DNA from: an uncultured Gemmatimonadaceae bacterium
Lineage (GTDB): Bacteria; Gemmatimonadota; Gemmatimonadetes; Gemmatimonadales; GWC2-71-9
Assembly (NCBI GenBank): GCA_964557115.1
Contig: CAZKYO010000003.1
Coordinates: 64,438 to 128,437 of the forward strand
DNA length: 64,000 nucleotides
Direction: 5' to 3'
Positions within the stretch are counted from its first letter, which is position 1. The number at the start of each line of letters is the position of its first letter. This document shows, piece after piece, positions 1,739 to 50,288 of the stretch. The notes under the pieces are model-generated. The model was not told where the DNA came from, did no database searches, and saw only the letters and a list, made by a program, of their open reading frames with translations. Position numbers and translations under genes: made by a program.

Positions 1739-3508
1739 TTACTGCTGGCAGCGCCCGTTCGGGTCCGGGAGCGGCTGGTCCACCTTCGGCCGGTGGTCGA
1801 GGTTGGCCACCGCCACGGCAAGGTCATGCACGAACTGGTCGACCTGCGCCATGTGCCGGTACTGGATGTACTGCGGCTCGTCGGTCACCTGGTGGTAGTC
1901 GGCATGGCCGCCGGTCGTGAAGAAGATGATCGGGATGCCGTAGCGGGCGTACTCGTAGTGGTCGCTGCGGCAGTAGATGTTCTGCGGATGGCCGTTCGCG
2001 TCGATCGCGTAGTCGAACTTCAGGTTGTGGCCCTTCGCGTTGACCGCCTCGGCCAGGTCGCCGAGCTCGGTCGAGAGGCGCCGCGACCCGACCAGCTGCA
2101 CGTAGCCGTCGCCGCCCTTCAGCAGCCCGCCCTCCTTCGCCTCCCCGGTCACGTCCGTGGCGGCGCCGCGGCCGACCATGTCCATGTTGAGCTCGGTCAC
2201 GATCGACTCGCGCGGCACGGTCGGATGGTCGGTGAAGAACTGCGACCCGAGCAGCCCGGCCTCCTCGCCCGCGTGCCAGATGAAGAGGATCGAACGCTTC
2301 GGCCGGGTGGGCGCCTTGGCGAACGCCTCGGCGATCTCGAGCACCGAGACCGAGCCCGAGCCGTCGTCATCGGCGCCGTTGGAGATCGAGTCCTCGCGCA
2401 CCGGATTGATCGCACGCAGCGAGTCCTTCACCGCGTTGATCCGGGCCCAGGTCGCCTCGTCGGGTTGACCGAGCCCGCGCGAATCGGCGCCCTGCACCTG
2501 GTGGACCATCAGGTAGGCCTTCATCGAGTCGTGCTCGACCGGGCGCCCGGCGCGGAAGCCGATGTGGTCGTTGTGGGCGCCGATCGCGACGTACTCGTTC
2601 TTGAGCTGCGGATCGCTGCCCTCGAGGATCGCGACGACGTTGCGGCCCGGCGCCGGCTCCTGGGTGAACCGCAGGTGCAGCGACGCCGTCCCGCCCGCGG
2701 CACCCTTCGCCATGCCGTCCATCGCGCGGCCGAGGAGCGCCGTGGCCAGCGCGGTCGTGCCGGTGATCGTGGCCGAGGCATTGGCGCCAGCCCGCGGCGG
2801 GAACGGCGGGTTCGGGTCGATGTAGCTGGCCCGGCCGCCGCCGAAGCCGCCCCGGTTTCCCTGGGGCAGCTCGTCGCCGACGATCGTCACCACCGCCGCG
2901 GCGCCCTGCAGCGACCGCGCGTACTCCGCCATCGCCCCGCCGCGATTGAAGCCCGCGCGGCCCCGCCCGCCGGCGGCGGCCTGCGGTGCCGACAGCACGA
3001 CGATCTTGCCCTCGACCGAGCCCGGCGCCATCAGGTTGGTCGTGTCGAAGGCCGTGCCGCCGAAGACCACCTGGACGTTGTCGAGGTCGAGCGCGGTGCC
3101 GGGGATGTTCGCGGTGAAGCCGCTGCCCGGGATGGTCTTCCCCGCCGCGACGATCGACGAGCCCGCCTCGTCGTAGCTCCGGGTGAAGAGCGGCACCTTC
3201 TGGAAGAACGTGCCATTGTCGCCGGCCGGCTTGAGGCCGAGCGTCGCGACCTGGCCGGCGATGTAGTCGGTGCCCTTGTCGTTGTAGATCGTCCCGACCT
3301 GGCGGCCCATCATCGAGTCGTCGGCAAAGATGTAGAGCCGCGTCATCAGGTCGCACGGCGAGATCTGGGCGACGGTCGCCGGGCCGCTGTACTTGAGCGG
3401 CATCTTGGCGCCGGTCGCCGCGGGGCACTGCGCCGCCACCGGGGCGGCGAAGCCGAACGCCGCGAGGAGCAGCGCGATCGGACGGGGATGATTCGAGAGG
3501 TTCGGCAT
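1739..3508 (-). CDS. secreted M28-family zinc aminopeptidase with PA-like insert
   Basis: ORF-track entry 1739..3673 trimmed to the ATG at 3508. This exposes the signal peptide MPNLSNHPRPIALLLAAFGFAAPVAAQ. M28 core: GADDDGSGSVSVLEIAEAF, FIWHAGEEAGLLGS, NMDMVG. Confidence 0.85.
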   Translation of the reverse strand: MPNLSNHPRPIALLLAAFGFAAPVAAQCPAATGAKMPLKYSGPATVAQISPCDLMTRLYIFADDSMMGRQVGTIYNDKGTDYIAGQVATLGLKPAGDNGTFFQKVPLFTRSYDEAGSSIVAAGKTIPGSGFTANIPGTALDLDNVQVVFGGTAFDTTNLMAPGSVEGKIVVLSAPQAAAGGRGRAGFNRGGAMAEYARSLQGAAAVVTIVGDELPQGNRGGFGGGRASYIDPNPPFPPRAGANASATITGTTALATALLGRAMDGMAKGAAGGTASLHLRFTQEPAPGRNVVAILEGSDPQLKNEYVAIGAHNDHIGFRAGRPVEHDSMKAYLMVHQVQGADSRGLGQPDEATWARINAVKDSLRAINPVREDSISNGADDDGSGSVSVLEIAEAFAKAPTRPKRSILFIWHAGEEAGLLGSQFFTDHPTVPRESIVTELNMDMVGRGAATDVTGEAKEGGLLKGGDGYVQLVGSRRLSTELGDLAEAVNAKGHNLKFDYAIDANGHPQNIYCRSDHYEYARYGIPIIFFTTGGHADYHQVTDEPQYIQYRHMAQVDQFVHDLAVAVANLDHRPKVDQPLPDPNGRCQQ

Positions 3509-3584
3509 GGCTCGAGGGCTAAGGGGTGAGGGTCGCCAGGGGGATGGCCACCCCCGATACGCACCGACCGCCCGTTTGGTTGCC

Positions 3585-4610
3585 CTAGCCGCCCCGGACG
3601 TGCATCTCGAGACCTGGATCATCGCGGAGCCGGGTGAGCGGCACGAGCACGCCCCGCTCGGGCAGGGCGGCACGCGCCTCGGCGCCGCGATCGGCGCGGG
3701 CCCGCCAGTGACCGCTGACCAGGCGCTCCAGCTCGGCGTCGCTCGCGCCGGCCCGGAGCGGCCCCGCGAGGTCGGTCCCCTCCTCCGCGTAGAGGCAGCG
3801 GTACCAGCGACCGTCGGCCGTGAGCCGGCTGCGATCGCAGTCGCGGCAGAACGGCGCGGTCGTGGACGTCACCACGCCGACCACGGTGCCGTCGCCGAGG
3901 CGCCAACGCTCGGCGGGGGCGCTCGGGTCGCCCGGGCGACCGATCGGCTCGGCACCGCCGAACGCCGCGGCGAGGCGCGCGACGATCTCGCGCCCGCTGA
4001 TCACCTGATCCGCCCGCCACTCGATCGCACCGCCCACGTCCATGTACTCGATGAAGCGCGGTTCGATCCCCCGCTCCGCCGCGAAGCGGACGATCGCCAC
4101 GAGCTCGTCGTCGTTGACGCCGCGCATGGCGACGGTGTTGAGCTTGACCGACGCGAAGCCGGCCGCGCCCGCGGCGGCGAGGCCGGCGAGGGTGTCGTCG
4201 AGGCGATCGTGCCGCGAGAGCGCGCGCATCCGGTCCCGGTCGAGGGTGTCGAGCGAGACGGTCACCCGTTGGAGCCCCGCCTCGCGCAACGCCCCGGCCT
4301 GGGTCGCGAGCCGGGTGCCGTTGGTGGTGAGCGCGAGATCGTCCACGCCGGGCAGCGCGGCCAGGCGCGCGACGAGCTCGGGGAGATTCGGCCGCAGGAG
4401 CGGCTCGCCCCCGGTGATCCGCAGCTTGGCCACGCCGAGTCGGACGAACACGCCGGCCAGGCGGGTGATCTCGTCGAAGTCGAGCAGCGACGGCGCGGCG
4501 AGGAAGCGGTAGGCGTCCGCCGGCATGCAGTAGCGGCAGCGCAGGTTGCAGCGGTCGGTGACCGAGATCCGCAGCGCGCCGAGCGGGCGGCCGAGCCGAT
4601 CGCGGATCAC
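3585..4610 (-). CDS. moaA: GTP 3',8-cyclase MoaA (radical SAM)
   Basis: CxxxCxxC motif in RCNLRCRYCMP and a C-terminal GG. Start set to GTG 4610, which forms a GTGA overlap with the moaE stop. The ORF-track start at 4646 remains possible. Confidence 0.9.
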   Translation of the reverse strand: MIRDRLGRPLGALRISVTDRCNLRCRYCMPADAYRFLAAPSLLDFDEITRLAGVFVRLGVAKLRITGGEPLLRPNLPELVARLAALPGVDDLALTTNGTRLATQAGALREAGLQRVTVSLDTLDRDRMRALSRHDRLDDTLAGLAAAGAAGFASVKLNTVAMRGVNDDELVAIVRFAAERGIEPRFIEYMDVGGAIEWRADQVISGREIVARLAAAFGGAEPIGRPGDPSAPAERWRLGDGTVVGVVTSTTAPFCRDCDRSRLTADGRWYRCLYAEEGTDLAGPLRAGASDAELERLVSGHWRARADRGAEARAALPERGVLVPLTRLRDDPGLEMHVRGG

Positions 4611-5035
4611 GGTGCTGGATGCGCTGGCGTGGTCGGGTCGACCCATTCCGTCGACCCGTCCACGAACCGCTCGAGCTTCCAGATGGGTACCCGCGCCTTC
4701 ACGGCGTCGATCACCCAGCGGTTGGCCTCGTAGGCCTCGTCGCGGTGGCCACCGCTGGTGACGACGAGCACGGCAGCATCGCCCGGGACCAGGGCGCCGA
4801 GGCGATGCACCAGGACGACCCGCACCGGCCAGCGCGCCTCTGCCTCGTGCACGATGGCGGCCGAGGCGCGCTCCGCCATCGCGTCGTAGGCGGAATACTC
4901 CAGTCCGCTGACGGCCCGACCATGATGGTTGTCGCGGACCCGACCCAGGAACACGACGACGCCCCCGCGGGCAGGATCGGCCGCGGCAGCGAGCGCGCCG
5001 GCAACATCGATCGGCTGGGTGGTGAGGTGGGGCAC
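4607..5035 (-). CDS. moaE: molybdopterin synthase catalytic subunit MoaE
   Basis: 142 aa, GTG start. MoaE pattern: FLGRVRDNHHGR, LEYSAY..MAE, GGHRDEAYEANRWVID..K..VPIWK. Confidence 0.85.
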   Translation of the reverse strand: MPHLTTQPIDVAGALAAAADPARGGVVVFLGRVRDNHHGRAVSGLEYSAYDAMAERASAAIVHEAEARWPVRVVLVHRLGALVPGDAAVLVVTSGGHRDEAYEANRWVIDAVKARVPIWKLERFVDGSTEWVDPTTPAHPAP

Positions 5036-5037
5036 CT

Positions 5038-5283
5038 TCAGCCTCCGGCCAGCGGTGGCAGGAGGGCCAGCTCGTCGTCGGGACCGATCGCCGTGTCGGG
5101 AGGGACCACCGCGAGGTTGATCGCGACGATGGGAGACGGCGGAAGCGAACCGCCCCCCGGCAAGGACCGGAGGGCGGTGATCAGGTCAGCGACGGTCGGC
5201 CGTCCCGCCAGCTCGACCTCCAGCTCGGCGCCACCCAGCAGCTCGGCGTACCGCGCGAAGGTGACGACCCGGTGGCGGCTCAT
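5038..5283 (-). CDS. moaD: molybdopterin synthase sulfur-carrier subunit MoaD
   Basis: 81 aa ThiS/MoaD-size protein ending in diglycine (LPPLAGG). It lies directly upstream of moaE. ATGA overlap with the HU/IHF stop. Confidence 0.75.
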   Translation of the reverse strand: MSRHRVVTFARYAELLGGAELEVELAGRPTVADLITALRSLPGGGSLPPSPIVAINLAVVPPDTAIGPDDELALLPPLAGG

Positions 5284-5603
5284 TCCCCGCCGGACGACAG
5301 CGGCGCATCGTCGTCGGCCACCAGGATCCGCAACTCCTTGCTGGGCTTGAAGACAGGCACCGGCCGTGCGGCCACTTCCACCGGCTCGCCGGTGCGTGGA
5401 TTGCGCGCCATCCGGGTCTTGCGGCGCCGGATCTTGAAGGTGCCGAAGCCGCGGACCTCGATGTTGTGCTGCTCCTTGAGCGCCAGCTTGACCGCATCGA
5501 GGAAGGCGTCCACGACCCGCGCGCAGTCCTTCTTCGAGATCATCGGACCCGAAGTGCGGGCAATCGCAGCGGTGACTTGTTCGACGAGATCGGCCTTGGT
5601 CAT
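5280..5603 (-). CDS. HU/IHF-family DNA-binding protein
   Basis: 107 aa. RGFGTFKIRRRKTRMARNPRTGEPVEVAARPVPVFKPSKEL is the classical HU/IHF beta-arm. Acidic C-terminal tail. Confidence 0.9.
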   Translation of the reverse strand: MTKADLVEQVTAAIARTSGPMISKKDCARVVDAFLDAVKLALKEQHNIEVRGFGTFKIRRRKTRMARNPRTGEPVEVAARPVPVFKPSKELRILVADDDAPLSSGGE

Positions 5604-7183: not shown

Positions 7184-7219
7184 CAGGAAACCTCGGAACT
7201 TGGGGGCATGCCTAGCCCT

Positions 7220-38838: not shown

Positions 38839-39015
38839 CTACGGGCTCGCGGGCGGGGGATCTCCCCCTCGCCGCTCGATCACCCGCATTGCCAGCGCGA
38901 TCGCAAGCACGGCGATCGCCACCCAGTTGAGGAGGCGGTTGTCGAGCGACACCGCGAGCACCGCGAGGACGATCCCGGTCGCCGCGAAGGCGAGCTTCAG
39001 GCGGCGGATCCTCAC
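38839..39015 (-). CDS. small hypothetical two-TM membrane protein (58 aa), absent from the ORF track
   Basis: My translation from GTG 39015: VRIRRLKLAFAATGIVLAVLAVSLDNRLLNWVAIAVLAIALAMRVIERRGGDPPPASP, stop TAG 38839-38841. The start makes a GTGA overlap with the enoyl-CoA hydratase stop, as at many confirmed junctions here. Confidence 0.4.
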   Translation of the reverse strand: MRIRRLKLAFAATGIVLAVLAVSLDNRLLNWVAIAVLAIALAMRVIERRGGDPPPASP

Positions 39016-39770
39016 TTGTCGAGGAACTGGCCCACGGCCCGCTTGAAGTCCTCGGTCGCGCGGGACAGCGCGTTCACCCGGGCGCCGAGGAGGATCCCCT
39101 CCCCGAAGCTGCGGTCGTCGAGCTCGGTGAAGAGCTGCTTGGTGAGTGCGAACGCGGTGCCCGAGCGCCGCGCGAGGTCGAGCAGGAAGTCGGTCGAGTC
39201 GCGCTCGAGCAGCGCGTCGTCCATGACGCGACTCACCAGCCCGATGGCGTGTGCCTCCTCGGCTCCCACGACCCGGCCGGTCGCCACCAGCTCGAAGGCG
39301 CGCTTCTCGCCCACCGATCGGCGCAGCATCGTCATCACCATCGCCGGCACGAAGCCGCGCTGGATCTCGGGGTAGCCGAACTGGGCCGATCGCCCCGCCA
39401 GGACGATGTCGCAGGCCGAGGCGAGCCCGGCACCGCCGGCCAGCGCCCGCCCGTGCACGACCGCGACCACCGGCTTGGGCAGCCGGCGCATCGCCAGGAA
39501 GACCTCACCCAAGTGCAGGGCGCTGCGCTCGTTCTCGTCGAGCGGCCGGGCGACCGACGCCAGCAGCTCGGCCAGGTCGGCGCCGGCGCAGAAGTCCTTC
39601 CCCGCCCCGCGGATCGCCACCACCCGCACCTCGCTCTCCAGCTCGGCGCGCGCCATCGCCTCGGCGAGCCCGCCGATCATCGCGTCGGAGAGGGCGTTGC
39701 GCTTGTCGGCTCGATCGAGGGTGACGGTGAGCAGTCCCTCCTCGAGCGTCGTCACGAGACTCCCGCTCAT
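39012..39770 (-). CDS. enoyl-CoA hydratase/isomerase (crotonase) family protein
   Basis: 252 aa. Crotonase oxyanion-hole region (GAGKDFCAGADL ... VHGRALAGGAGLA). Confidence 0.9.
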   Translation of the reverse strand: MSGSLVTTLEEGLLTVTLDRADKRNALSDAMIGGLAEAMARAELESEVRVVAIRGAGKDFCAGADLAELLASVARPLDENERSALHLGEVFLAMRRLPKPVVAVVHGRALAGGAGLASACDIVLAGRSAQFGYPEIQRGFVPAMVMTMLRRSVGEKRAFELVATGRVVGAEEAHAIGLVSRVMDDALLERDSTDFLLDLARRSGTAFALTKQLFTELDDRSFGEGILLGARVNALSRATEDFKRAVGQFLDK

Positions 39771-40123
39771 CGGGTCGCCTCCTTCACCCGCCTGGCCAGC
39801 TTGCGCGGCACCTCGATCTCCATCCGGAGCAGCGCGGTCGAGAAGACCTTCCCCTGCGCGTCGGTCTTGAGGGACATCGTGCCGCCCCCGTCGAGCGCGC
39901 CGTGGAGCATGAAGTTCAGCGCGTGCAGGTTGGGCAGTTCGTAGCGGTCGACCGAACTGACCATGCCGCGGAAATGCCGCGCGACCCGCTTCGCGGTCAC
40001 CTCGCGGCGGAGCAGCTCGTAGTGCTCGGGGTCGAGCGCGATCAGGCCGACGTTGGCGGCGTCGCCCTTGTCGCCGCTGCGGGCGTGGGCGAGCCAGCGG
40101 AGCTGGATCGGGGTGGTCGCCAT
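39767..40123 (-). CDS. small AtuA-associated protein (corresponds to the C-terminal domain of long AtuA; DUF4387-like)
   Basis: 118 aa. AHARSGDKGD.ANVGLIA motif. 1-nt TGATG overlap with the DUF1446 gene and ATGA overlap with the next gene. Assignment rests on context and remembered family features. Confidence 0.55.
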   Translation of the reverse strand: MATTPIQLRWLAHARSGDKGDAANVGLIALDPEHYELLRREVTAKRVARHFRGMVSSVDRYELPNLHALNFMLHGALDGGGTMSLKTDAQGKVFSTALLRMEIEVPRKLARRVKEATR

Positions 40124-41493
40124 CAGAGCATCTCCACGGTCACGTGCGGTTCGATCAGCTCGCGCGCCACCAGCGCGGGCCAGTACGCCACGATCTCCTC
40201 CACCTGCGGTCGCCCGCCGGCGAAGCCGGTCACGCTCGGCGGCCCGGTGAGCACCAGCGGCGCGATCTCGCGGGTGAACCGCTCCACCGCCGCGCGATCG
40301 CGGCTCCGGACACCCACCCGCAGCATCACCTCGGCGATCTCGGGATCCGGCTCGCCGGCCAGCCGGCCGTGGGTCGCATCGACACCCACGAACTCGGTCA
40401 GCACCTGGTCATACTCCAGGCCGAGGGCCTTGAGCCGCTTGCGGAGGATCCGGTCGGCGGCCTTCGCCTTGTCGAGCGCCTCCGGCCAGGCATACACGAG
40501 CGTGCCCACCGCCTTCCATCCCCACGCATAGGCGATCGAGACCTTGAGCATCGGCGTGCGCGGGCGGCCGCCGATTCCCGAGACCCGCACCTTGTCGCGG
40601 CCGGTCTGGTCGAGCCGGATGGTCGTGAAATCCGCGATCCCGTCCGGGGTGATGTACTCCTTGGGGTCGCCCATCTCGTACACGAGCTGCTCGGTGACCG
40701 ACGCGACACTGACCACGCCGCCGGTGCCGGGGTGCTTGGTGACGGTGAAGCTGCCGTCGGCCTCGGCGACGACGATCGGGAAGCCGACATCCTCGAGCTT
40801 GCGGACCTTGCGCCAGTCGCGCAGCAGGTTGCCGCCGGAGCTCTGGGCGCCGCACTCCAGGATGTGGCCCGCCACCGTCCCCGCCGCGATCCGGTACCAG
40901 TCGTCGTCCGACCAGCCGAACTCGTGCATCAGCGGCCCGAGGGTGAGCCCGGTGTCGGTCACTCGGCCGGTGATGACGATGTTGGCGCCCCGATCGAGCG
41001 CCTCGACCACCGGCTTCATGCCGAGGTAGGCGTTGGCGGAGCGCACCTCGGTCCGGATGTCGGTGAGCGGCCGCCCCGTGTCCATGTTGGCGAGCGCCTG
41101 GCCCGCGTCGAGCAGCTCGTCGAGCCGCGGCAGCAGGTCGTCGCCGTGCACCAGCGCGATACGGATCCGGTCGCCGAATCCTGCCTTGTCGGCGGCGGCG
41201 CGCACCGCCTCCGCGCAGGCGCGCGGATTGACGCCGCCGGCGTTGGAGACGACGCGCACACCGCCGGCGATCTCGGGCAGGATCCGCTCGACCTGGGTGA
41301 CGAAGTCGCGGGCGTAGCCGAGCGAGGGATCGCGCGATCGCTGCTTCTGCAGGATCGACATCGTCACCTCGGCGAGGTAGTCCATCACGAGGTAGTCGAT
41401 CGGGCCGCCCTTGGCCTGGCGGATCGGCGCCTCGAGCCAGTCGCCCCAGAACCCCTGGCCACTGGCGATGCGAACGGTCTTCTTCTGCTTCAC
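40123..41493 (-). CDS. acyclic terpene utilisation AtuA-family protein (DUF1446)
   Basis: 456 aa from GTG 41493, with a GTGA overlap with the S8 stop. N-terminus [13 protein letters not shown]...[17 protein letters not shown] is typical of DUF1446. The track ORF to 41733 is over-extended. Confidence 0.8.
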
Positions 41494-44321
41494 GGCGTTC
41501 CCCTGGACGGCTCGATGAGCGGCAGCTCGCGGGTCCACACCGCGGCGTCGCCCTCGAGGGCTATCAGCGTGACGAGCGGACGCCAGCCGGTCGGGACCTC
41601 GACCGGCAGCGCCTCGAACGGAAAGCGCACCTGTCGGCTGACGCCGGGTGCGTTGGTCGTGCGCGGCGTGCCGCCATGGTCGATCGCGATCGGTTGCGCC
41701 GCCTGGAAGCGGGCCGCGGCGATCACCTCCCACGGCGTGGCCGGCGTGCTCACCGCGGCGGCCGGCGAGAGCACCAGGAGCAGCGTGTCGCCGCGAACAT
41801 CCTCGGGCAGGTCGACCCGCATCCGGCCGAAGGCGTAGTTGAGCGGCGACTCGGCGACCATCCGTCCGTCGAGGCGCCGCAGCGAGACGCCGAAGTCAGT
41901 GAAGCGCGACCAGCTCGCCTCCGGCATCGTGACGTCGAGCACGAGCGAGGCGGCCCAGGTCGGGACCGGGAGCCGTTCCACATGCACCGCCGACGAATCG
42001 CCGGTGAGGTGCCGCTGCCACTCCGCACCGGTGAGCGCGGCGCGCAGGCGGAACTCCAGTGGCCGGGCGGTCAGGTTCGCCGCGTCAACCACCAGCGCGC
42101 TCGGTTCCAGTCGGGCCGAGAGCCGCACCGGACTGCGGTGGATCGTCACCCGGGCCGCGACGCCGGAACTGGGCGGCGCGAGGACGTCCACCTCGTACCA
42201 GCCGGCCTGTGCGTCTTCGGCGTCGACCTCGAGCAGCCCCGCCCCGTCGCCGTGGCCGGCCGGGGTCATCGGCACGTCGCGGAACGGCTGGCCGCCGGGC
42301 TCGTGCAGCGCGACGAGCGCCAGTCCGTCGGCGGCCAGGGTACCGACCTCGACGCGGAAGCCGCGTCCCTCCTCGCCGCGGAAGAAGAAGCGACTCACGC
42401 CACCGGAGTGCACCTGGGCCACACCGGAGGCGCCGTCGCCGTCGGCCAGGGGCACCCGGATCGTGACCGGGATCCGTGTGAGCACGCCGAGGGCCTCGTT
42501 GTCGGCATCCTCGAGCGACACGGCACCGATGTAGACGCCCGGGGCCGCGACGAGCTTCTGGTCGATCTGCAGGTAGAGTGCGACGCCATCGGGCGAGAGG
42601 TTGCGGAGCGTCGGCCCCTCCACCGACAACCACGGCACGTTGGTGCGCACCCGCAGCCGCGCGATCGGCGCGCCGCCGACCCGCTGCACCCGGAGCTTGG
42701 CTCCGGTCGGCGCCGGGCCGACCGAGAACCAGATCGCGTTGTGGGTCGGCTGGCCGTCCACCACCACGCCGAGGCGCGGGACGTCGGACTGGTTCTGGAG
42801 CCAGCGTGCCGCCGCGATCACATCCGGCACGCCGGCGCCCTGGTCGAGCACCGTCGCCTCGCTGACGGCGCGTGCCGTGGCGGTGAGCGCCTGGTTGACC
42901 ATGGCGCGCGGCGGCGGCGCGCCGTTCCGGGGCAGCGAGAGCAGCCGCGCGGCCAGCCCGGCGACGTGCGGCGACGCCATCGAGGTGCCGCTCTTCTCCT
43001 CGTTGCCGGTGTCGAAGCGCGGCACGCTGGACCACGCCGTCCCCGGGGCGATCACCTCCGGGCCGGCGCGCTCGCCGCCGCGGCTCGAGAAGAGCGCCAC
43101 CGGATCGGGCGTCGGGTCGTTGGGCGAGTAGCCATTGAACACCAGCGGCTGGGTGGCACCCACCGACAGCACCCGCGTGGCACTCGCCGGAAAGCCCAGG
43201 GTGCTGAGTCCGGGGCCGTCGTTGGAGGCCGAGACGGTCATCACCACGTCGGGATGCTCGGCCAGGATCGAGTCGACCACGGCATCGATCCGCGCGGTGC
43301 CCTCGAGCTGGTTGCCGACGCCGAAGGAGAGGTTGATCACCAACGGCATCCGCCGCGACTCGGCGAAGGCGATCGCGTACGCCATCGCCCGTTCCATCGA
43401 GCCGGTGGTCGTCACGCCACCGTCGGCATTGTCGGCGATCTTGAGGCCGAGGACCCGGGCCCCGGGTGCCACGCCGTCGAAGCCCTTCACCCCGAAAAGG
43501 TCGTGACCGGCGGCGATCCCGGCCACGTGGGTGCCGTGGCCGCCGTTGTCGAAGACGAGGTCGAGCCGGGGCACGCCGGCCGAGTCGTCGATGTTGGCCG
43601 CGACGCCGATCGTCGGCGAGCCCGCGGCCGACCAGCCGAACGACTCGCGGGCCACATGATAGTCCCGCACCGGACGGTCATCGGCGAGCGAGCCGTCGCG
43701 GTTGCGGTCGGTGAAGACGAGCCAGTCGGGCGCGCCGCGCGCGACGATCACGAGGAGCGTGTCACCGAGCCGGCCGTTGGCGTCGAGGTCTGCGCCGGGC
43801 GCCTCGCCGTAGCGCACCTCCGGCACCAGTCCGCCGAAGACCGGCCCCGCCGCCATCGCGAGGATCCGGCCCGCGCCCGCCAGGTGCCGATCGCCGACCC
43901 ATACGGTGTCGCGATCGATCCGCGCCGGGCGGAGCGCGATGGCGCCCTCGCCGCTGAAGTCCCGGAGATCGAGCAACTTCGGAGCGCCGTCGCTGGTGGT
44001 GCCGAGCCCCTCGGCCGTCGGGTCGATGCCGCTGTCGAGGATCGCGATCAGCACCCCGCGGCCGTCGGCCTCGGGCTGCAGCTGCGCGAACTCGTCGACG
44101 TGGGTGGCGTGCAGCGGCATCAGCCCAGACCGATAGGCGGCGATCGCCGCCTCGTGGCGGTCGGGCACTTGTCCGGGCGAGAGGCCCGCGCTGCCGCCGA
44201 GGGTAACCACCGGCGCCGCCGCGACGCCTGGCGTGCGCGAGGTCGGCCGCGGCACCGCTTCCGGGGCGGGTGGCGCGCCGCACGCGGCCGCCAGCAGGAG
44301 GAGCGGCAGCGCCCTGCGCAT
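41490..44321 (-). CDS. secreted/lipoprotein S8 subtilase, tripeptidyl-peptidase-II-like
   Basis: 943 aa from ATG 44321. Lipobox-type signal [15 protein letters not shown]. Catalytic D (AILDSGID), H (GGHGTHVAG) about 160 aa later (a TPPII-like insertion), and S ([11 protein letters not shown]). About 500-aa C-terminal extension. The track's 1376-aa ORF is an out-of-frame read-through artefact. Confidence 0.85.
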
Positions 44322-45937
44322 CACCTGATTCGGTCGAGGACGAACGGGCCGAGGTGGGGGCCGTCGTGGTGCGACGTGACCCGGAGCAGGAAGGCGAGCA
44401 CGTCTCGCGTCTCCTCGGGCGCGATGATCGCGTCCACGAAGCCGCGCGCGCCGGCGAACTCCGCGCTCAGCTGGTGCTCGTAATCCGCCCGCATCGCCTC
44501 CACCGCCGCCGACAGCTCGGGATCGAGCGGCCGCCGCTCGGCCTGCGCCTTCTGGATCGCCGGGCCGTGCACGGCCATGACGGCGCTCTCTCCTTCCATC
44601 ACCGCCATCCGGCCGGTGGGCCAGGAGACGATGAAGTCGGGATCGAATCCCTGCCCCGCCATGGCGTAGTAGCCGGCGCCCGAGGCGTGATTCACGGTGA
44701 GCACCAGCTTCGGCACCGTGGCCGTCGCCATCGCCTCGACGAAGTGCGCGCCGGCCCGGATGATCCCCTCGTGCTCGGCCTCGGGACCGACCATGAACCC
44801 CGACACGTCCTGCACGAAGAGGATCGGCAGCCGCTCGCGATTGGCGGTCTCGATGAAGTAGGCCACCTTCTCCGCGCTCTCGGCGTAGACGATGCCGCCG
44901 AAGCGGGGGCGCTCGCCCGGGTGTCCCTTGATGATGCCACGCTGGTTGGCGATCAGCGCGACCGGCATCCCGTCGATCCGGGCGTGGCCGCAGAGCATCT
45001 CGCGGGCGCGGTCGGGCTGGAACTCGTCGAGCTTGCCCCCGTCGATGAACGTCTCCAGCACGTGCCGCATGTCGTACGAGAGGCGATGGTCGTGCGGAAG
45101 CAGGTCGTAGAGCTCGGCGGGACCGCGGGTCGGCGCCGTCCCCCGGACCCCGCCCTCCGCCTGTCGCGGCAGCCGTCCCACATACTCGCGGATCCGCTCG
45201 AGGCATTCGGCGTCGGTCTTCGCGGTGTAGTGCGCGACGCCGCTCGTCTCGGTGTGGGTCCTGGCCCCACCGAGCGTCTCGCTGTCGACGGTCTGGCCGG
45301 TGGCACCCTTGACGAGGTTGGGGCCACCGAGGCCCATGAACGACGTCCCCTCGACCATGAAGATCACGTCGGAGAGCGCGGGGAGGTACGCGCCACCGGC
45401 GATGCAGCTCCCCATCACCGCGGCGACCTGCGGCACCTGCAGGTAGCGGCGCATGAGCGAGTTGTAGTAGAAGATCCGCGCGGCGCCGTACTGTCCCGGG
45501 AACACCCCGCCCTGGTAGGGGAGGTTCACGCCGGCGGAGTCGACCAGGTAGACGATCGGGATGCGCTGCCGCATCGCGACCTCCTGGGCGCGGAGGATCT
45601 TGGTGATCGTCTCGGGCCACCAGGCGCCCGCCTTCACCGTCGCGTCGTTGGCGACGATCACCGCGTCATGGCCGCTCACCACGCCGACGCCGGTGAGGAC
45701 GCCGGCCGCCGGCGCCTCGCCGTCGTACCGGTCGTGCGCCACGAGCAGGCCGATCTCGAACCACGGCGTGCCGGGGTCGCGCAGCCGCTCCACGCGCTCG
45801 CGAGGCGACAGCTGCCCCTTGCCGTGCATCTTGGCGACCCGCTTGGCGCCGCCGCCCTGGCGGAGCCGATCGGTCAGCTCGCGCCAGGCGTCGGTGAGTT
45901 CGCGCAGCCGGCCGGCGTCCTTCTTCGCTGGAGGCAT
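44321..45937 (-). CDS. acyl-CoA carboxylase carboxyltransferase (beta) subunit (PccB/MccB/AtuC family)
   Basis: 538 aa, two crotonase-like CT halves (VVANDATVKAGAWWPETI, SCIAGGAYLPALSD, GIIRAGAHFVEAM). Substrate not assignable by eye. Confidence 0.9.
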   Translation of the reverse strand: MPPAKKDAGRLRELTDAWRELTDRLRQGGGAKRVAKMHGKGQLSPRERVERLRDPGTPWFEIGLLVAHDRYDGEAPAAGVLTGVGVVSGHDAVIVANDATVKAGAWWPETITKILRAQEVAMRQRIPIVYLVDSAGVNLPYQGGVFPGQYGAARIFYYNSLMRRYLQVPQVAAVMGSCIAGGAYLPALSDVIFMVEGTSFMGLGGPNLVKGATGQTVDSETLGGARTHTETSGVAHYTAKTDAECLERIREYVGRLPRQAEGGVRGTAPTRGPAELYDLLPHDHRLSYDMRHVLETFIDGGKLDEFQPDRAREMLCGHARIDGMPVALIANQRGIIKGHPGERPRFGGIVYAESAEKVAYFIETANRERLPILFVQDVSGFMVGPEAEHEGIIRAGAHFVEAMATATVPKLVLTVNHASGAGYYAMAGQGFDPDFIVSWPTGRMAVMEGESAVMAVHGPAIQKAQAERRPLDPELSAAVEAMRADYEHQLSAEFAGARGFVDAIIAPEETRDVLAFLLRVTSHHDGPHLGPFVLDRIR

Positions 45938-45944
45938 CGGCCGG

Positions 45945-46379
45945 TCAGGGACGCAGGTGGCTGCGGGCCCACTCGTTGATGTACTCGACCAGCTCCCCGG
46001 TCGGGGTGCCCGGGCCGAAGAGCCGGCCGATCCCGCCGGAGGTCAGCGTCCCCATGTCGTCCTCGGGGATGATGCCGCCGCCGGTGACCAGGATGTCGGG
46101 GCGCCCCTGCTCCACCAGCAGTGCGCGGACCCGCGGGAAGAGGGTCATGTGGGCGCCCGACAGGATCGAGAGCCCCACCACGTCGACGTCCTCCTGGATC
46201 GCGGCGGACGCGATCATCTCGGGCGTCTGGTGGAGGCCGGTGTAGATCACCTCCATCCCGGCGTCGCGCAGCGCGGCGGCCACGACCTTGGCCCCGCGGT
46301 CGTGTCCGTCGAGTCCGGGCTTGGCCACCAGCACGCGCACGGGGCGCGGCAGCGGCGGGGCATCGGCGGCAGCCATCAT
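45945..46379 (-). CDS. B12-binding small subunit/domain of a split methylmalonyl-CoA-mutase-family enzyme
   Basis: 144 aa. DxHxxG cobalamin motif in [10 protein letters not shown], and SILSGAH. Confidence 0.9.
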
Positions 46380-46395
46380 CGGGCGTCTCCTCCGG

Positions 46396-47547
46396 TCACT
46401 TGAAGCGCAGCAGTGCCGCCAGGCCGTCGATCCCGGCCCGCGCGTCCTCGTCGTACACCACGTCGAGCGCGACCCGCTGGCGGAGCGCCTCCTCGATCGC
46501 GTCGTCGATCACGTCCAGGGTGGCCACGACCTCGCCGTCGGTCTTGAGGTCCATCGCCGCGGCGGCCAGCCTACCGGTGGCCAGCGAGCGGAAGCCGCGC
46601 CGGCTGGCATCGCCGTCCACCAGCAGGGTGCGCACCTGCCCGTTGCCGAGCGCGCGCAGCGTGTCCTTGAGGCCGTTGACGGCCCAGCCGGTGCCGAGGC
46701 CCTCGGTGAGCTCCTCGAGGTGGCGGTGTTCCGAGGCGCGCGCATGCGCCTCGCGCACGTCCATCGTCAGCTCGTGCACGGCGTTCGGCGTCGCGTCCTT
46801 CGGCGTCATCCGCGCCACGCCGATCAGCCGGTCCGCCACGTAGTTGTGGAGGAACGGCTCCAGCGCGCTGGCATCGCTGCCGGCGCCCGCCAGCACGATC
46901 TGGTGCCCCGGCGAGCGGCGGTCCATCTCGAAGAGCGCCCGGGCCACCGCCTCGAGGTGCCGCTTCTTCTCGTTCTGGATCCGGTTCTGGTAGGTGTGCT
47001 CGCCGGTCAGGTTGCTGCGCGCCTCGGCGTGGAAGCGGCCGCCACGGGTCACCTCGGTCTCGACCTTGCGGACCATCTTCGCCTCGAACGCGGTGACCTC
47101 CCAGATCAGCGCGGTGGCGCGGTCGAGCACCACCGTGAACATCCGCCCGAACTCCTCCTCGCTGGCGGCGAGCTCGCGCACCAGCGGGGTGCGATCGACC
47201 ACCAGGCGCGAGCGGTGCACCCGCGGCAGCGGCCGCACCTCGAACAGCTTCTGGCCCTTCGAGGCGAAGATCGCCACGCCCTGCGACGACGGCAGCCGGT
47301 CGGCGTCGCCGAGCCAGGTGAGGATCCGCTTGAAGTCGTCCTTGATCTGGGTCTCGTGCTTCTTGTCCCACCCGAGCGACGGCAGGGCGTACTCCATCTC
47401 CTTGACGCGATTCTTGGCCTTGGTGAGGTACTTCCGCCGGGCGCGGTCGCGCGGCTCGATCTTGAGGTAGCAGGTGACGACCGGATCGTCCCCCGGCTTC
47501 ATGCCGAGGAGCTGGCGGTCGGTGGCGGCGGTGCGTGCGGCAGGCAT
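46396..47547 (-). CDS. bacterial eRF1/Pelota/Vms1-like (baeRF1 superfamily) protein
   Basis: 383 aa. The layout matches my memory of bacterial 'Vms1/Ankzf1-family / eRF1-like' proteins. N-terminal [12 protein letters not shown], central TRGGRFHAE...[14 protein letters not shown]-terminal [24 protein letters not shown], terminal AALLRFK. Confidence 0.65.
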
Positions 47548-47568
47548 GAGACGATTCCCTCGTGCGTG

Positions 47569-49263
47569 CTAGAAGAAGATTGGCTCGCGGTACGATCCCC
47601 AGACCTCCTCGAGGACGTGCCGGATCTCGTACAGCGTGCAATAGGCGCGGGCGCAGTCGAGCATCGCGGGGATGACGTTGCGACCCGCCTCGGCGTCGGC
47701 GCGCAGGGTCGCCAGGCGCCCGGTGACCAGCGCGTCGTCGCGCCGGTCGCGGAGGGCCGCCATCCGCTCGCGCTGGGCGCGCTCGGCGGCCTCCTCCACC
47801 TTCAGGATCTCGATCGGCTCCTCGCTGTCCTCGACGAACGCGTTGACGCCGACCACCAGCTTGCGGCCCGCCTCGACCTCGGCCTGGAAGCGCGAGGCGG
47901 CCCCCGCGATCTCGCGCTGGAACCAGCCGGCCTCGATCGAGGGCACCACGCCGCCCTGCTCCTCCACCCGGGCGAAGATCGCCTCCGCCTCGGCCTCCAG
48001 CTGGTCGGTGAGCGCCTCGACATACCACGAGCCGCCCAGCGGGTCGGCGACGTTGGCGACGCCGGTCTCGTGGGCGAGGATCTGCTGGGTGCGGAGCGCC
48101 ACCCGCACCGACGTCTCGGTCGGCAGCGCCAGCGTCTCGTCGAGCGCGTTGGTGTGCAGCGACTGGGTGCCGCCCAGCACCGCGGCCATCGCCTGGTAGG
48201 CCACCCGGGCGACGTTGTTGAGCGGCTGCTGCGCGGTGAGCGACACCCCCGCCGTCTGGCAGTGGAAGCGCATCTTGAGCGACCGCTCGTCCCTGGCGCC
48301 GTAGCGCTCCTTGAGGTGGCGCGCCCAGATCCGCCGCGCCGCCCGCATCTTCGCGATCTCCTCGAAGAAGTCGTTGTGCACGTCCCAGAAGAACGAGAGC
48401 CTCGGCGCGAAGTCGTCCACGTCGAGGCCCCTGGCGATGCCGCGCTCCACGTAGGTGAAGCCGTTGAGGAGCGTGAAGGCGAGCTCCTGCACCGCGGTCG
48501 CGCCGGCCTCGCGGATGTGGTAGCCCGAGATCGAGATCGTGTTCCACTTGGGGGTGTGCTCCCCAGCCCACTCGAACATGTCCACGATCAACCGCAGCGA
48601 CGGCTCCACCGGGAAGATCCAGGCGTGCTGGGCGACGAACTCCTTCAGGATGTCGTTCTGGATCGTCCCCTGCAGCTTCGCGATCGGCACGCCCTGCTTC
48701 TCGGCCGCGGCGACGAAGAAGCAGAAGAGCATCGCGGCCGGCCCGTTGATCGTCATCGAGACCGACACCTGGTCGAGCGGGATGCCGTCGAACAGCGTCT
48801 CCATGTCGGCCAGCGACGCGATCGCGACGCCGCACTTGCCGACCTCGCCCTCGGAGCGCGGATGGTCGCTGTCGTAGCCCATCAGCGTCGGGAAGTCGAA
48901 CGCGACGCTGAGCCCGGTCTGGCCGCGCTCCAGCAGGAACTTGTAGCGCTTGTTGGTGTCCTCGGCGGTCCCGAAGCCGGCGAACTGCCGCATCGTCCAG
49001 AGCCGGCCGCGATACATCGTGGGGTGGATGCCGCGCGTGAACGGGTAGTCGCCCGGCATCTCGGGCGCGCCCGCGGCGTCCGCGGCGGTGTAGACCGGCT
49101 CCAGGTCGCGACCCGAGAGCGAGGTGAAGTCGCTGTCATCGCGATGCGGCAGGCGCGCCATGCGGGCGCGCCACTCGGCGACCTCGCGGCGCAGCTGGGC
49201 GAGTTCCGCCTCGCGGGCCGCGAGGCGGTCCTCCAGCAGGTCGCGATCGGTGATGGAGCTCAT
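47569..49263 (-). CDS. methylmalonyl-CoA mutase family, large catalytic (TIM-barrel) subunit
   Basis: 564 aa. [43 protein letters not shown]. It lacks the B12 domain, which is encoded separately. Confidence 0.95.
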
Positions 49264-50288
49264 ACCGGGGTCTCCTCCCGAAGCATCGCCACCACCTCGG
49301 CGGCAACATCGTAGGGTGAGGTGCTGCCGTCCGCGATCCGGTCCAGTCGCGCGGCGACCAGCGCCTGCACCGGACCGTCACTCCACATCCAGCGATCCAC
49401 CGCCCGGCTCACCACGGCGCGGGTCCGCTCCAGCAGCCGGGCCCGCCGCCGTTCCGCCAGGGCACCGCTCGCCGAGGTAAGGTCCCAGTGGCGGTCGAGT
49501 GCCTCGAGGATCGCGTCGATTCCTTCGTCCTTCAGCGCGATCGCCTCGAGCACCGGCGGGCGCCAACCCTCCGGCGGCTCCGCCGCCGCCTTGGCCGCAC
49601 CCTTCAGCGCGCCGTGGTGCGCCGGGATGTTGCGGAGCGCCTTGCCCGCGCGAAGGTCAAGCGCCAGCTCGATCTCGCGTCGCATCTTCGGCGCGCCCGG
49701 CCGGTCCGCCTTGTTGACGACGAAGCAGTCCGCCGCCTCCATCACACCCGACTTGAGCGCCTGGATCCCGTCGCCGGATTCGGGCACCAGCACCAGCACG
49801 GTCGAGTCGGTCATCCGCGCCACGTCGAGCTCCGACTGCCCGACGCCGACGGTCTCCACCAGGATTCGGTCGAAGCCCGCCGCGTCGAGGACGTCGGCCA
49901 CCTCGCGGGTCGCCGTGGCCAGGCCACCCAGCGAGCCGCGCGTCGCCATCGACCGGATATACACCCCGGGGTCGAGGGCGACCTTCTCCATCCGGATCCG
50001 GTCGCCCAGCAGCGCACCACCGGTGAACGGCGAGGTGGGATCGACCGCCACGACGGCGACCTTGAGCCCGGCCTTCCGCCACCCGGCCACCAGCCGCTCG
50101 CTCAGGGTGGACTTCCCCGCCCCGGGCGGCCCGGTGATCCCGATCCGGCGCGCCCGCCCGAGCCGGGGATGGATGGCGCTGAGCAGCGCCTCGAACCCCG
50201 GCCGGGCGTTCTCCACCAGGGAGACGGCACGGGCGACCGCCGGCACGGAGCCGACGATGAGCCCATCGAGAACAGGGTCCGAGGCCAT
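49260..50288 (-). CDS. meaB: methylmalonyl-CoA mutase-associated G3E GTPase MeaB/ArgK
   Basis: 342 aa. P-loop [29 protein letters not shown] overlap with the mutase start. Confidence 0.9.

Follow-up and report, generated by a model that had tools for sequence, protein, structure and literature searches.

A divergent relative of Balon hibernation factors encoded between the subunit genes of a split acyl-CoA mutase in Gemmatimonadales

A 383-aa protein with the three-domain aeRF1 fold is encoded between the large- and small-subunit genes of a split acyl-CoA mutase in an uncultured Gemmatimonadaceae bacterium. The window analyzed here is a whole 64,000-nucleotide stretch of contig CAZKYO010000003.1, and positions are given within it. 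The protein belongs to the bacterial eRF1-like (baeRF) families and lacks the GGQ motif. In our assessment, with a probability of about 0.62, it is a divergent, non-catalytic binder of the ribosomal A site, that is, a hibernation factor of the Balon type, whose gene is a passenger co-transcribed with a catabolic operon.

By analogy with Balon, the baeRF protein would bind the A site during translation shutdown. Its basic N-terminal domain would be placed at the decoding center, its middle domain would position the long GGR loop and an Arg/His-rich helix beside the peptidyl-transferase center without hydrolyzing peptidyl-tRNA, and its acidic C-terminal domain, with a conserved two-strand insert, would face EF-Tu. 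The gene would have been inserted once between the mutase subunit genes, in the ancestor of two Gemmatimonadales families, and inherited since. The link to the mutase would therefore consist of co-transcription with the genes for MeaB, the mutase, a carboxyltransferase, an S8 protease, AtuA and a hydratase, and not of a physical partnership. If this proposal is correct, uncultured soil Gemmatimonadales possess a divergent Balon-type hibernation factor, and a family described only in 2024 gains a subfamily that the curated equivalog models of NCBI miss.

The baeRF gene and its putative operon

The reading frame of the baeRF gene (P0002) runs from ATG to TGA on the minus strand (46396–47547), and its Balon-like character was recognized from the translation by Pfam, AlphaFold2 and Foldseek. 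All motifs quoted in the original prediction, including the terminal AALLRFK, are present in the translation; the strand is an addition made here. A sequence search recovers more than 2000 homologs with E ≤ 1e-3, including orthologs that match over the full length at 55 to 83% identity, and thus the frame is, by comparative evidence, a real gene. The plus-strand frame across the same positions also is free of stops, but it has an odd composition and was rejected in favor of the minus strand.

The run of genes, all on the minus strand, opens with the gene for the G-protein chaperone MeaB (49260–50288; Pfam MeaB, E = 8e-94; TIGR00750 above its cut-off), which overlaps by 4 nt with that of the large, substrate-binding subunit of the acyl-CoA mutase (564 aa; 47569–49263; Pfam MM_CoA_mutase, E = 3e-226). 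The stop codon of the large subunit is separated from the ATG of the baeRF gene by a 21-nt spacer (47548–47568; cacgcacgagggaatcgtctc) that contains a Shine-Dalgarno-like GAGGGA, 9 nt ahead of this ATG. A second spacer of 16 nt (46380–46395; ccggaggagacgcccg), which includes the Shine-Dalgarno-like purine run GGAGGAG, lies between the TGA of the baeRF gene and the ATG of the B12-binding small subunit (144 aa; 45945–46379; Pfam B12-binding, E = 2e-26; TIGR00640, 170 bits). Both spacers have exactly the lengths originally reported. The gene for an acyl-CoA carboxyltransferase (44321–45937; Pfam Carboxyl_trans, E = 3e-130) begins 7 nt after that of the B12 subunit, and the rest of the run (39012–44321) encodes an S8 peptidase, AtuA, a 118-aa ORF and an enoyl-CoA hydratase (Pfam AtuA and ECH_1). 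Peptidase_S8 is annotated in orthologous loci, and the gene order of the run recurs in relatives.

A scan of the run for promoters and terminators returned no site above shuffled expectation, a result that neither backs nor refutes an internal promoter. Given the Shine-Dalgarno-like runs in both spacers and the lack of a terminator- or promoter-like site in the run, the baeRF gene is likely co-transcribed with the mutase genes and MeaB, and the packing, as originally proposed, is tight enough for such an arrangement. A genome search found this to be the genome's sole baeRF gene. The genome also has a short HPF/RaiA gene, located on another contig.

At two positions occupied by Tyr and Arg in methylmalonyl-CoA mutase, the large subunit of this mutase instead has Phe (RQFAGF) and Gln (EFVAQHAW). 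We take this Phe/Gln pair to be a signature of the isobutyryl-CoA mutase type. The closest solved relative of the large subunit is that of 2-hydroxyisobutyryl-CoA mutase (4r3u), and the enzyme is probably isobutyryl-CoA-mutase-like or hydroxyisobutyryl-CoA-mutase-like, not a methylmalonyl-CoA mutase. A second mutase homolog is encoded elsewhere in the genome. Because the mutase is joined by the carboxyltransferase, AtuA and the hydratase, the operon looks like a catabolic module for branched-chain or terpenoid acyl-CoA compounds. The S8 peptidase gene of this cytoplasmic operon is a large subtilase gene (41490–44321, minus strand); it is flanked by the genes for the carboxyltransferase and AtuA and is kept in most orthologous loci.

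Family, fold and motifs of the baeRF protein

The protein scores 43.4 bits on the Pfam model baeRF_family10, against a gathering cut-off of 27.1, with a match that covers residues 121 to 265; baeRF_family3 and baeRF_family2 likewise exceed their gathering cut-offs. The NCBIfam 'ribosome hibernation factor' equivalog models named for Rv2629, AOC03_06830 (Balon) and MSMEG_1130 give 60.8, 51.9 and 45.0 bits, respectively. These scores are far under the cut-offs of 320, 330 and 480, and therefore the protein qualifies as an equivalog in none of these hibernation-factor subfamilies.

An AlphaFold2 model based on an alignment of 32 orthologs (mean pLDDT 82.8) has three domains, and comparison by Foldseek identifies these as the aeRF1 architecture, composed of an N domain, an RNase-H-like middle domain and a Pelota-like C domain. 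The solved Balon structures are those of Msmeg1130 from M. smegmatis (8v9j and 8v9l), Rv2629 from M. tuberculosis (8v9k) and Balon from P. urativorans (8rd8, 8rdv and 8rdw). When the model was compared with the PDB, Msmeg1130 ranked first (8v9j, E = 5e-18), Rv2629 and P. urativorans Balon followed at about 1e-13, interleaved with aRF1/eRF1, and Pelota/Dom34 came last (E = 6e-7 and weaker). The alignments to Balon, aRF1 and eRF1 span 362 to 403 columns. Membership in the eRF1 superfamily, as originally proposed, is thus borne out by both the Pfam profile and the predicted structure.

Searches of PDB sequences with the single sequence or a narrow profile gave marginal matches (E = 2e-3 to Rv2629), and an hhalign comparison between the clade profile and Msmeg1130 as a lone sequence was uninformative (probability 1.5%). 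With a broader profile of 63 family sequences, the match to Msmeg1130 is full-length (E = 1e-33), and aRF1 (2e-26), Rv2629 (1e-20) and Balon (8rd8, 1e-12) follow. The Msmeg1130 sequence, as read from the profile alignment, scores 124.6 bits on baeRF_family10, which makes the 383-aa protein a divergent member of a family that includes a ribosome-bound hibernation factor. Profiles and predicted fold together place it in the bacterial aeRF1 clade as a divergent member that shares its Pfam family with Msmeg1130.

The N-terminal domain (residues 1–130; 47158–47547, minus strand), delimited by model secondary structure, conservation and charge, is basic (pI 10.05) and carries the sequence YLKIEPRDR. 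No NIKS motif is present in the 383-aa sequence. The RNase-H-like middle domain (residues 131–265; 46753–47157, minus strand) includes most of the Pfam match and aligns with domain 2 of aRF1/eRF1. Its loop at the GGQ position (residues 164–183; 46999–47058, minus strand) is modeled with low pLDDT values of 53 to 68. Here GGR replaces GGQ (TRGGRFH), and a basic helix follows. Both the GG (TRGMR, SRGSR, TR-GR and TQNVR) and the length of the loop vary among orthologs, the Arg residues of the loop and the basic helix are conserved, and the alignment of clade orthologs has no conserved Gln in the loop. Distant relatives in the same Pfam family have GGWSQ or GGW.GY at this position. The original prediction correctly noted that the Gln expected after GG is not evident (GGRFH), and to this can be added that Arg takes its place and that the GG itself is not invariant. 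With no Gln after a variable GG, the baeRF protein of the mutase operon is expected to be non-catalytic.

The C-terminal domain (residues 266–383; 46399–46752, minus strand) corresponds to Pelota/eRF1 domain 3, as it aligns with Rv2629 Balon and with domain 3 of aRF1. It is acidic (pI 4.99), and its last residues are LLRFK. A two-strand insert (residues 312–345; 46513–46614, minus strand; model strands 318–321 and 325–326) occupies the zinc-ribbon site of aRF1. Residues G318, F319, R320, G325 and R326 of this insert are invariant in the clade, and G318 occupies one of just two invariant columns in the 63-sequence family alignment. Its position suggests, in light of published comparisons (PMC6514570; PMC10901736), that the insert may be equivalent to the EF-Tu hairpin of Balon. 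Two cysteines of the insert (GFRC...EC), vestiges of the zinc ribbon of aRF1, are present in most relatives, and in the genus of the window both are replaced (GFRS...DL).

Balon-type hibernation factors of baeRF_family10 were described in 2024 (PMC10901736). They bind the A site without GGQ or NIKS; an HP motif, a lasso loop and a bL27 trap are among their features, as is a C-domain hairpin that binds EF-Tu (PMC10901736). Among their gene neighbors are RtcB and the BON-domain protein OsmY (PMC10901736). Contrary to the original prediction, a translational role for the 383-aa protein would thus not be new. The Balon factors are its best structural matches and share with it the three-domain aeRF1 fold, the absence of GGQ and NIKS, a terminal ..LLR[FYW] and a two-strand C-domain insert that may be equivalent, and Msmeg1130 also is a fellow member of baeRF_family10. 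They differ from it in sequence, with 16 to 19% identity to the solved Balons in the Foldseek alignments and equivalog scores well short of the cut-offs, and the loop of the 383-aa protein is longer and distinct (TRGGRFH...GEH.YHNRI). The Msmeg1130 sequence FIHPL, a candidate HP motif, aligns in the 383-aa protein with LVREL, a segment that is devoid of the His-Pro pair. Balon genes are reported beside RaiA, Hsp20, RtcB and others, whereas the present gene resides inside an acyl-CoA catabolic operon. Balon homologs have been seen bound to ribosomes.

With aRF1/eRF1 the protein has in common the overall fold, the order of domains, a GG-containing loop at the same position and an LRF/LRY motif at the C terminus. 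In contrast with these factors, the 383-aa protein has neither the Gln of GGQ nor the NIKS stop-codon motif, and the zinc ribbon is reduced to a degenerate two-strand insert. The bacterium's own release-factor system is RF1/RF2. Pelota/Dom34 shares the fold and the absence of a catalytic Gln, but its structural matches are much weaker, and no Pelota-specific sequence match was found. The Vms1/ANKZF1 (VLRF1) hydrolases are of the same superfamily, but the 383-aa protein matches no VLRF1 or acVLRF1 model in Pfam or NCBIfam and has no GxxQ. The label 'Vms1/peptidyl-tRNA hydrolase', which the original prediction had attached to the protein, is therefore not supported, as both the Gln and a VLRF1 model match are missing.

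Gene order across the phylum

In a survey of 201 genomes sampled across the phylum, the baeRF protein was matched in 107 and the split mutase in 187. All orthologs from the family of the window (f1) and from a second Gemmatimonadales family (f3), which are 37 to 83% identical to the 383-aa protein, are encoded between the large- and small-subunit genes, with MeaB upstream and the carboxyltransferase downstream. When 80 GTDB species loci are considered, the order large subunit, baeRF, small subunit is present in 68, nine are cut by contig ends and three are exceptions; that is, the order holds in 68 of the 71 loci with enough flanking sequence to judge. The position between the split subunits, first noticed in a single genome, is thus recurrent in related genomes.

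Nine copies are unlinked to the mutase and are located at unrelated loci. In the tree they form one clade (99/100), which lies inside a 100/100 clade that also holds all linked copies. This topology is compatible with a single origin of the linkage, and the conserved order looks like one ancestral insertion, vertically inherited, in two Gemmatimonadales families. If so, its recurrence reflects inheritance and not repeated selection. Family-wide motifs kept in linked and unlinked copies alike include R168, the GE.. helix (R189, E193 and R196), GQ.R, G318, R320 and the LRF end. Conservation of the N-terminal YLK[LI]EPRDR is much higher among linked copies than among unlinked ones. The neighbors of unlinked copies include Usp, BON and RtcB, as identified with a crude, GC3-based gene caller that supports family counts only; this tally, which fits the Balon context, is consequently just suggestive.

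In three species an intact baeRF gene is kept at a locus that lacks mutase genes (G153, L122 and L113). The G153 locus (L094/L099) is from the same genus as the window and sits midway along a contig of 143 kb. There, an MgtE-like gene is followed, after a spacer of 110 nt, by the genes for baeRF, carboxyltransferase, S8, AtuA and hydratase, with no gene for MeaB or for either mutase subunit. L122 resembles it, in that the baeRF gene is directly upstream of the carboxyltransferase gene and the MeaB, large-subunit and small-subunit genes are absent. The L113 locus (2957–5594) consists of MeaB, truncated at its 3′ end, baeRF and the B12 small subunit; either the large-subunit gene was truly deleted, so that the B12 subunit is now an orphan, or the contig was misassembled. 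To compare these copies with the rest, 78 copies were ranked by the share of 132 clade-conserved positions that each retains. The G153 copy retains 98.5%, which is the median, and the copies from L113 (93%) and L122 (92%), both intact, are eighth and second from the bottom.

The converse arrangement also is found. At least 10 genomes of family f1 have about 20 nt, and no baeRF gene, separating the large- and small-subunit genes, and the sister family likewise has adjacent mutase genes without baeRF. In one genus the sole baeRF copy is unlinked and the mutase genes are adjacent. Thus, baeRF persists at loci that lack mutase genes, and the mutase likewise persists in the absence of baeRF, a pattern that departs from the co-occurrence expected of a mutase accessory protein. 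Other genes occupy the large/small junction in sister families that lack baeRF (L074, 5700–6513; L078, 3185–5954; L082, 5733–7846), and they encode a SAM-methyltransferase-like protein, a CNNM/CorC-type protein and a putative periplasmic protein. The presence of such unrelated genes suggests that the junction is a permissive and recurrent insertion site in the phylum.

From these distributions, the position of the gene probably implies no role in mutase function. The original prediction had entertained a chaperone or assembly factor for the split mutase, an idea disfavored by the baeRF genes without mutase genes, the mutase genes without baeRF, the unlinked paralogs and the other genes found at the junction. 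Its statement that no link between eRF1-like proteins and B12 mutases was known still holds, since we found no literature that links baeRF, Balon or eRF1 proteins to an acyl-CoA mutase or to MeaB. The case calls for caution in guilt-by-association annotation, because a gene can lie between the subunit genes of an enzyme throughout a lineage, yet show no dependence on that enzyme in the genomic evidence. However, the order of the baeRF and mutase genes, with intergenic distances of tens of bases, has persisted among orthologs that are as little as 37% identical, and this persistence makes some functional connection with the operon conceivable.

Candidate functions and further features of the loci

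The proposed role as a Balon-type hibernation factor must be weighed against three other functions. According to Burroughs and Aravind, the Gln is missing from most baeRF-1 families, which are probably non-catalytic at the A site and are often encoded beside HPF genes, and relief of stalled ribosomes without catalysis is one of the activities put forward for them (PMC6514570). The 383-aa protein might accordingly resemble Pelota/Dom34 in function, and rescue or split stalled ribosomes, perhaps together with a GTPase, rather than store idle ones. We regard this as unlikely, even though the fold is common to both and one unlinked relative adjoins RtcB, because the Pelota matches (E = 6e-7 and weaker) fall far behind that of the Balon homolog Msmeg1130 (5e-18), and because hibernation factors are the only experimentally characterized members of baeRF_family10. 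An active peptidyl-tRNA hydrolase, serving in release or rescue with a residue other than Gln, is the least probable of the candidates. Pfam family 10 was singled out for a conserved, possibly catalytic Gln (PMC6514570), distant relatives have GGWSQ, and the GG is kept in the 383-aa protein itself. These points are outweighed by the Arg that follows GG in the clade, by a loop that varies in length and in its GG and has no conserved Gln, and by the fact that Msmeg1130, from the same Pfam family, binds ribosomes without GGQ (PMC10901736).

It is also improbable, though less so than hydrolysis, that the protein is an accessory or moonlighting factor of the split mutase, acting either as a helper in assembly or cofactor loading or as a sensor that silences ribosomes in response to acyl-CoA or B12 status. 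Its gene does sit exactly between the subunit genes in nearly all species loci that can be judged, across two families; YLK[LI]EPRDR is conserved specifically in the linked clade; and the acidic C domain could offer a new interface. Nevertheless, the baeRF gene stays intact where mutase genes are absent from the locus, adjacent mutase genes do without it in the same family and in the sister family, a paralog clade nested among the linked copies is found at unrelated loci, the junction accepts unrelated genes in other lineages, the order apparently stems from one insertion and so recurs by inheritance, and no baeRF–mutase fusion was found. A related idea is that a Balon-type protein has gained a second function tied to the operon, for which YLK[LI]EPRDR would be the new interface. 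Contact with MeaB or with the B12 subunit is one option; another is that production of the protein in a fixed ratio to a starvation-induced catabolic module would couple ribosome silencing to the breakdown of branched-chain or terpenoid acyl-CoA compounds. We keep such an operon-linked role as a reading, albeit a doubtful one, because the gene order is long-lived, the N-terminal motif is much better conserved in the linked clade, and, of the three copies whose loci are depleted of mutase genes, those of L113 and L122 are relatively divergent.

The comparisons above show the family, the predicted fold, the loss of GGQ and the gene order with its distribution; ribosome binding, the timing of expression and co-transcription are predictions. 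The position of the gene would hard-wire production of the factor to the catabolic operon, which offers a hypothesis on when the ribosomes are silenced.

Several features of the loci are of separate interest. Open frames of 908 to 971 aa that appeared to represent MeaB–mutase or mutase–baeRF fusions were rejected as high-GC artifacts, since the genes are in different frames and have intact stops. About half of the loci from L096 to L175 have an extra gene of approximately 700 nt (gap of 680 to 900 nt) after the baeRF gene. Where annotated, it encodes a HAD hydrolase, as at 7215–7910 of L002, ahead of the B12 subunit gene; the genus of the window has no HAD hydrolase gene at the mutase junction. 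Lastly, 79 of the 80 GTDB species loci are labeled as Gemmatimonadota MAGs, mostly Gemmatimonadales, and one carries a Bacillota label. The latter (L156; JBLMWC010000099.1) is a typical Gemmatimonadales MeaB–mutase–baeRF locus in a MAG named 'Bacillota bacterium', and the label is probably a binning or labeling error.
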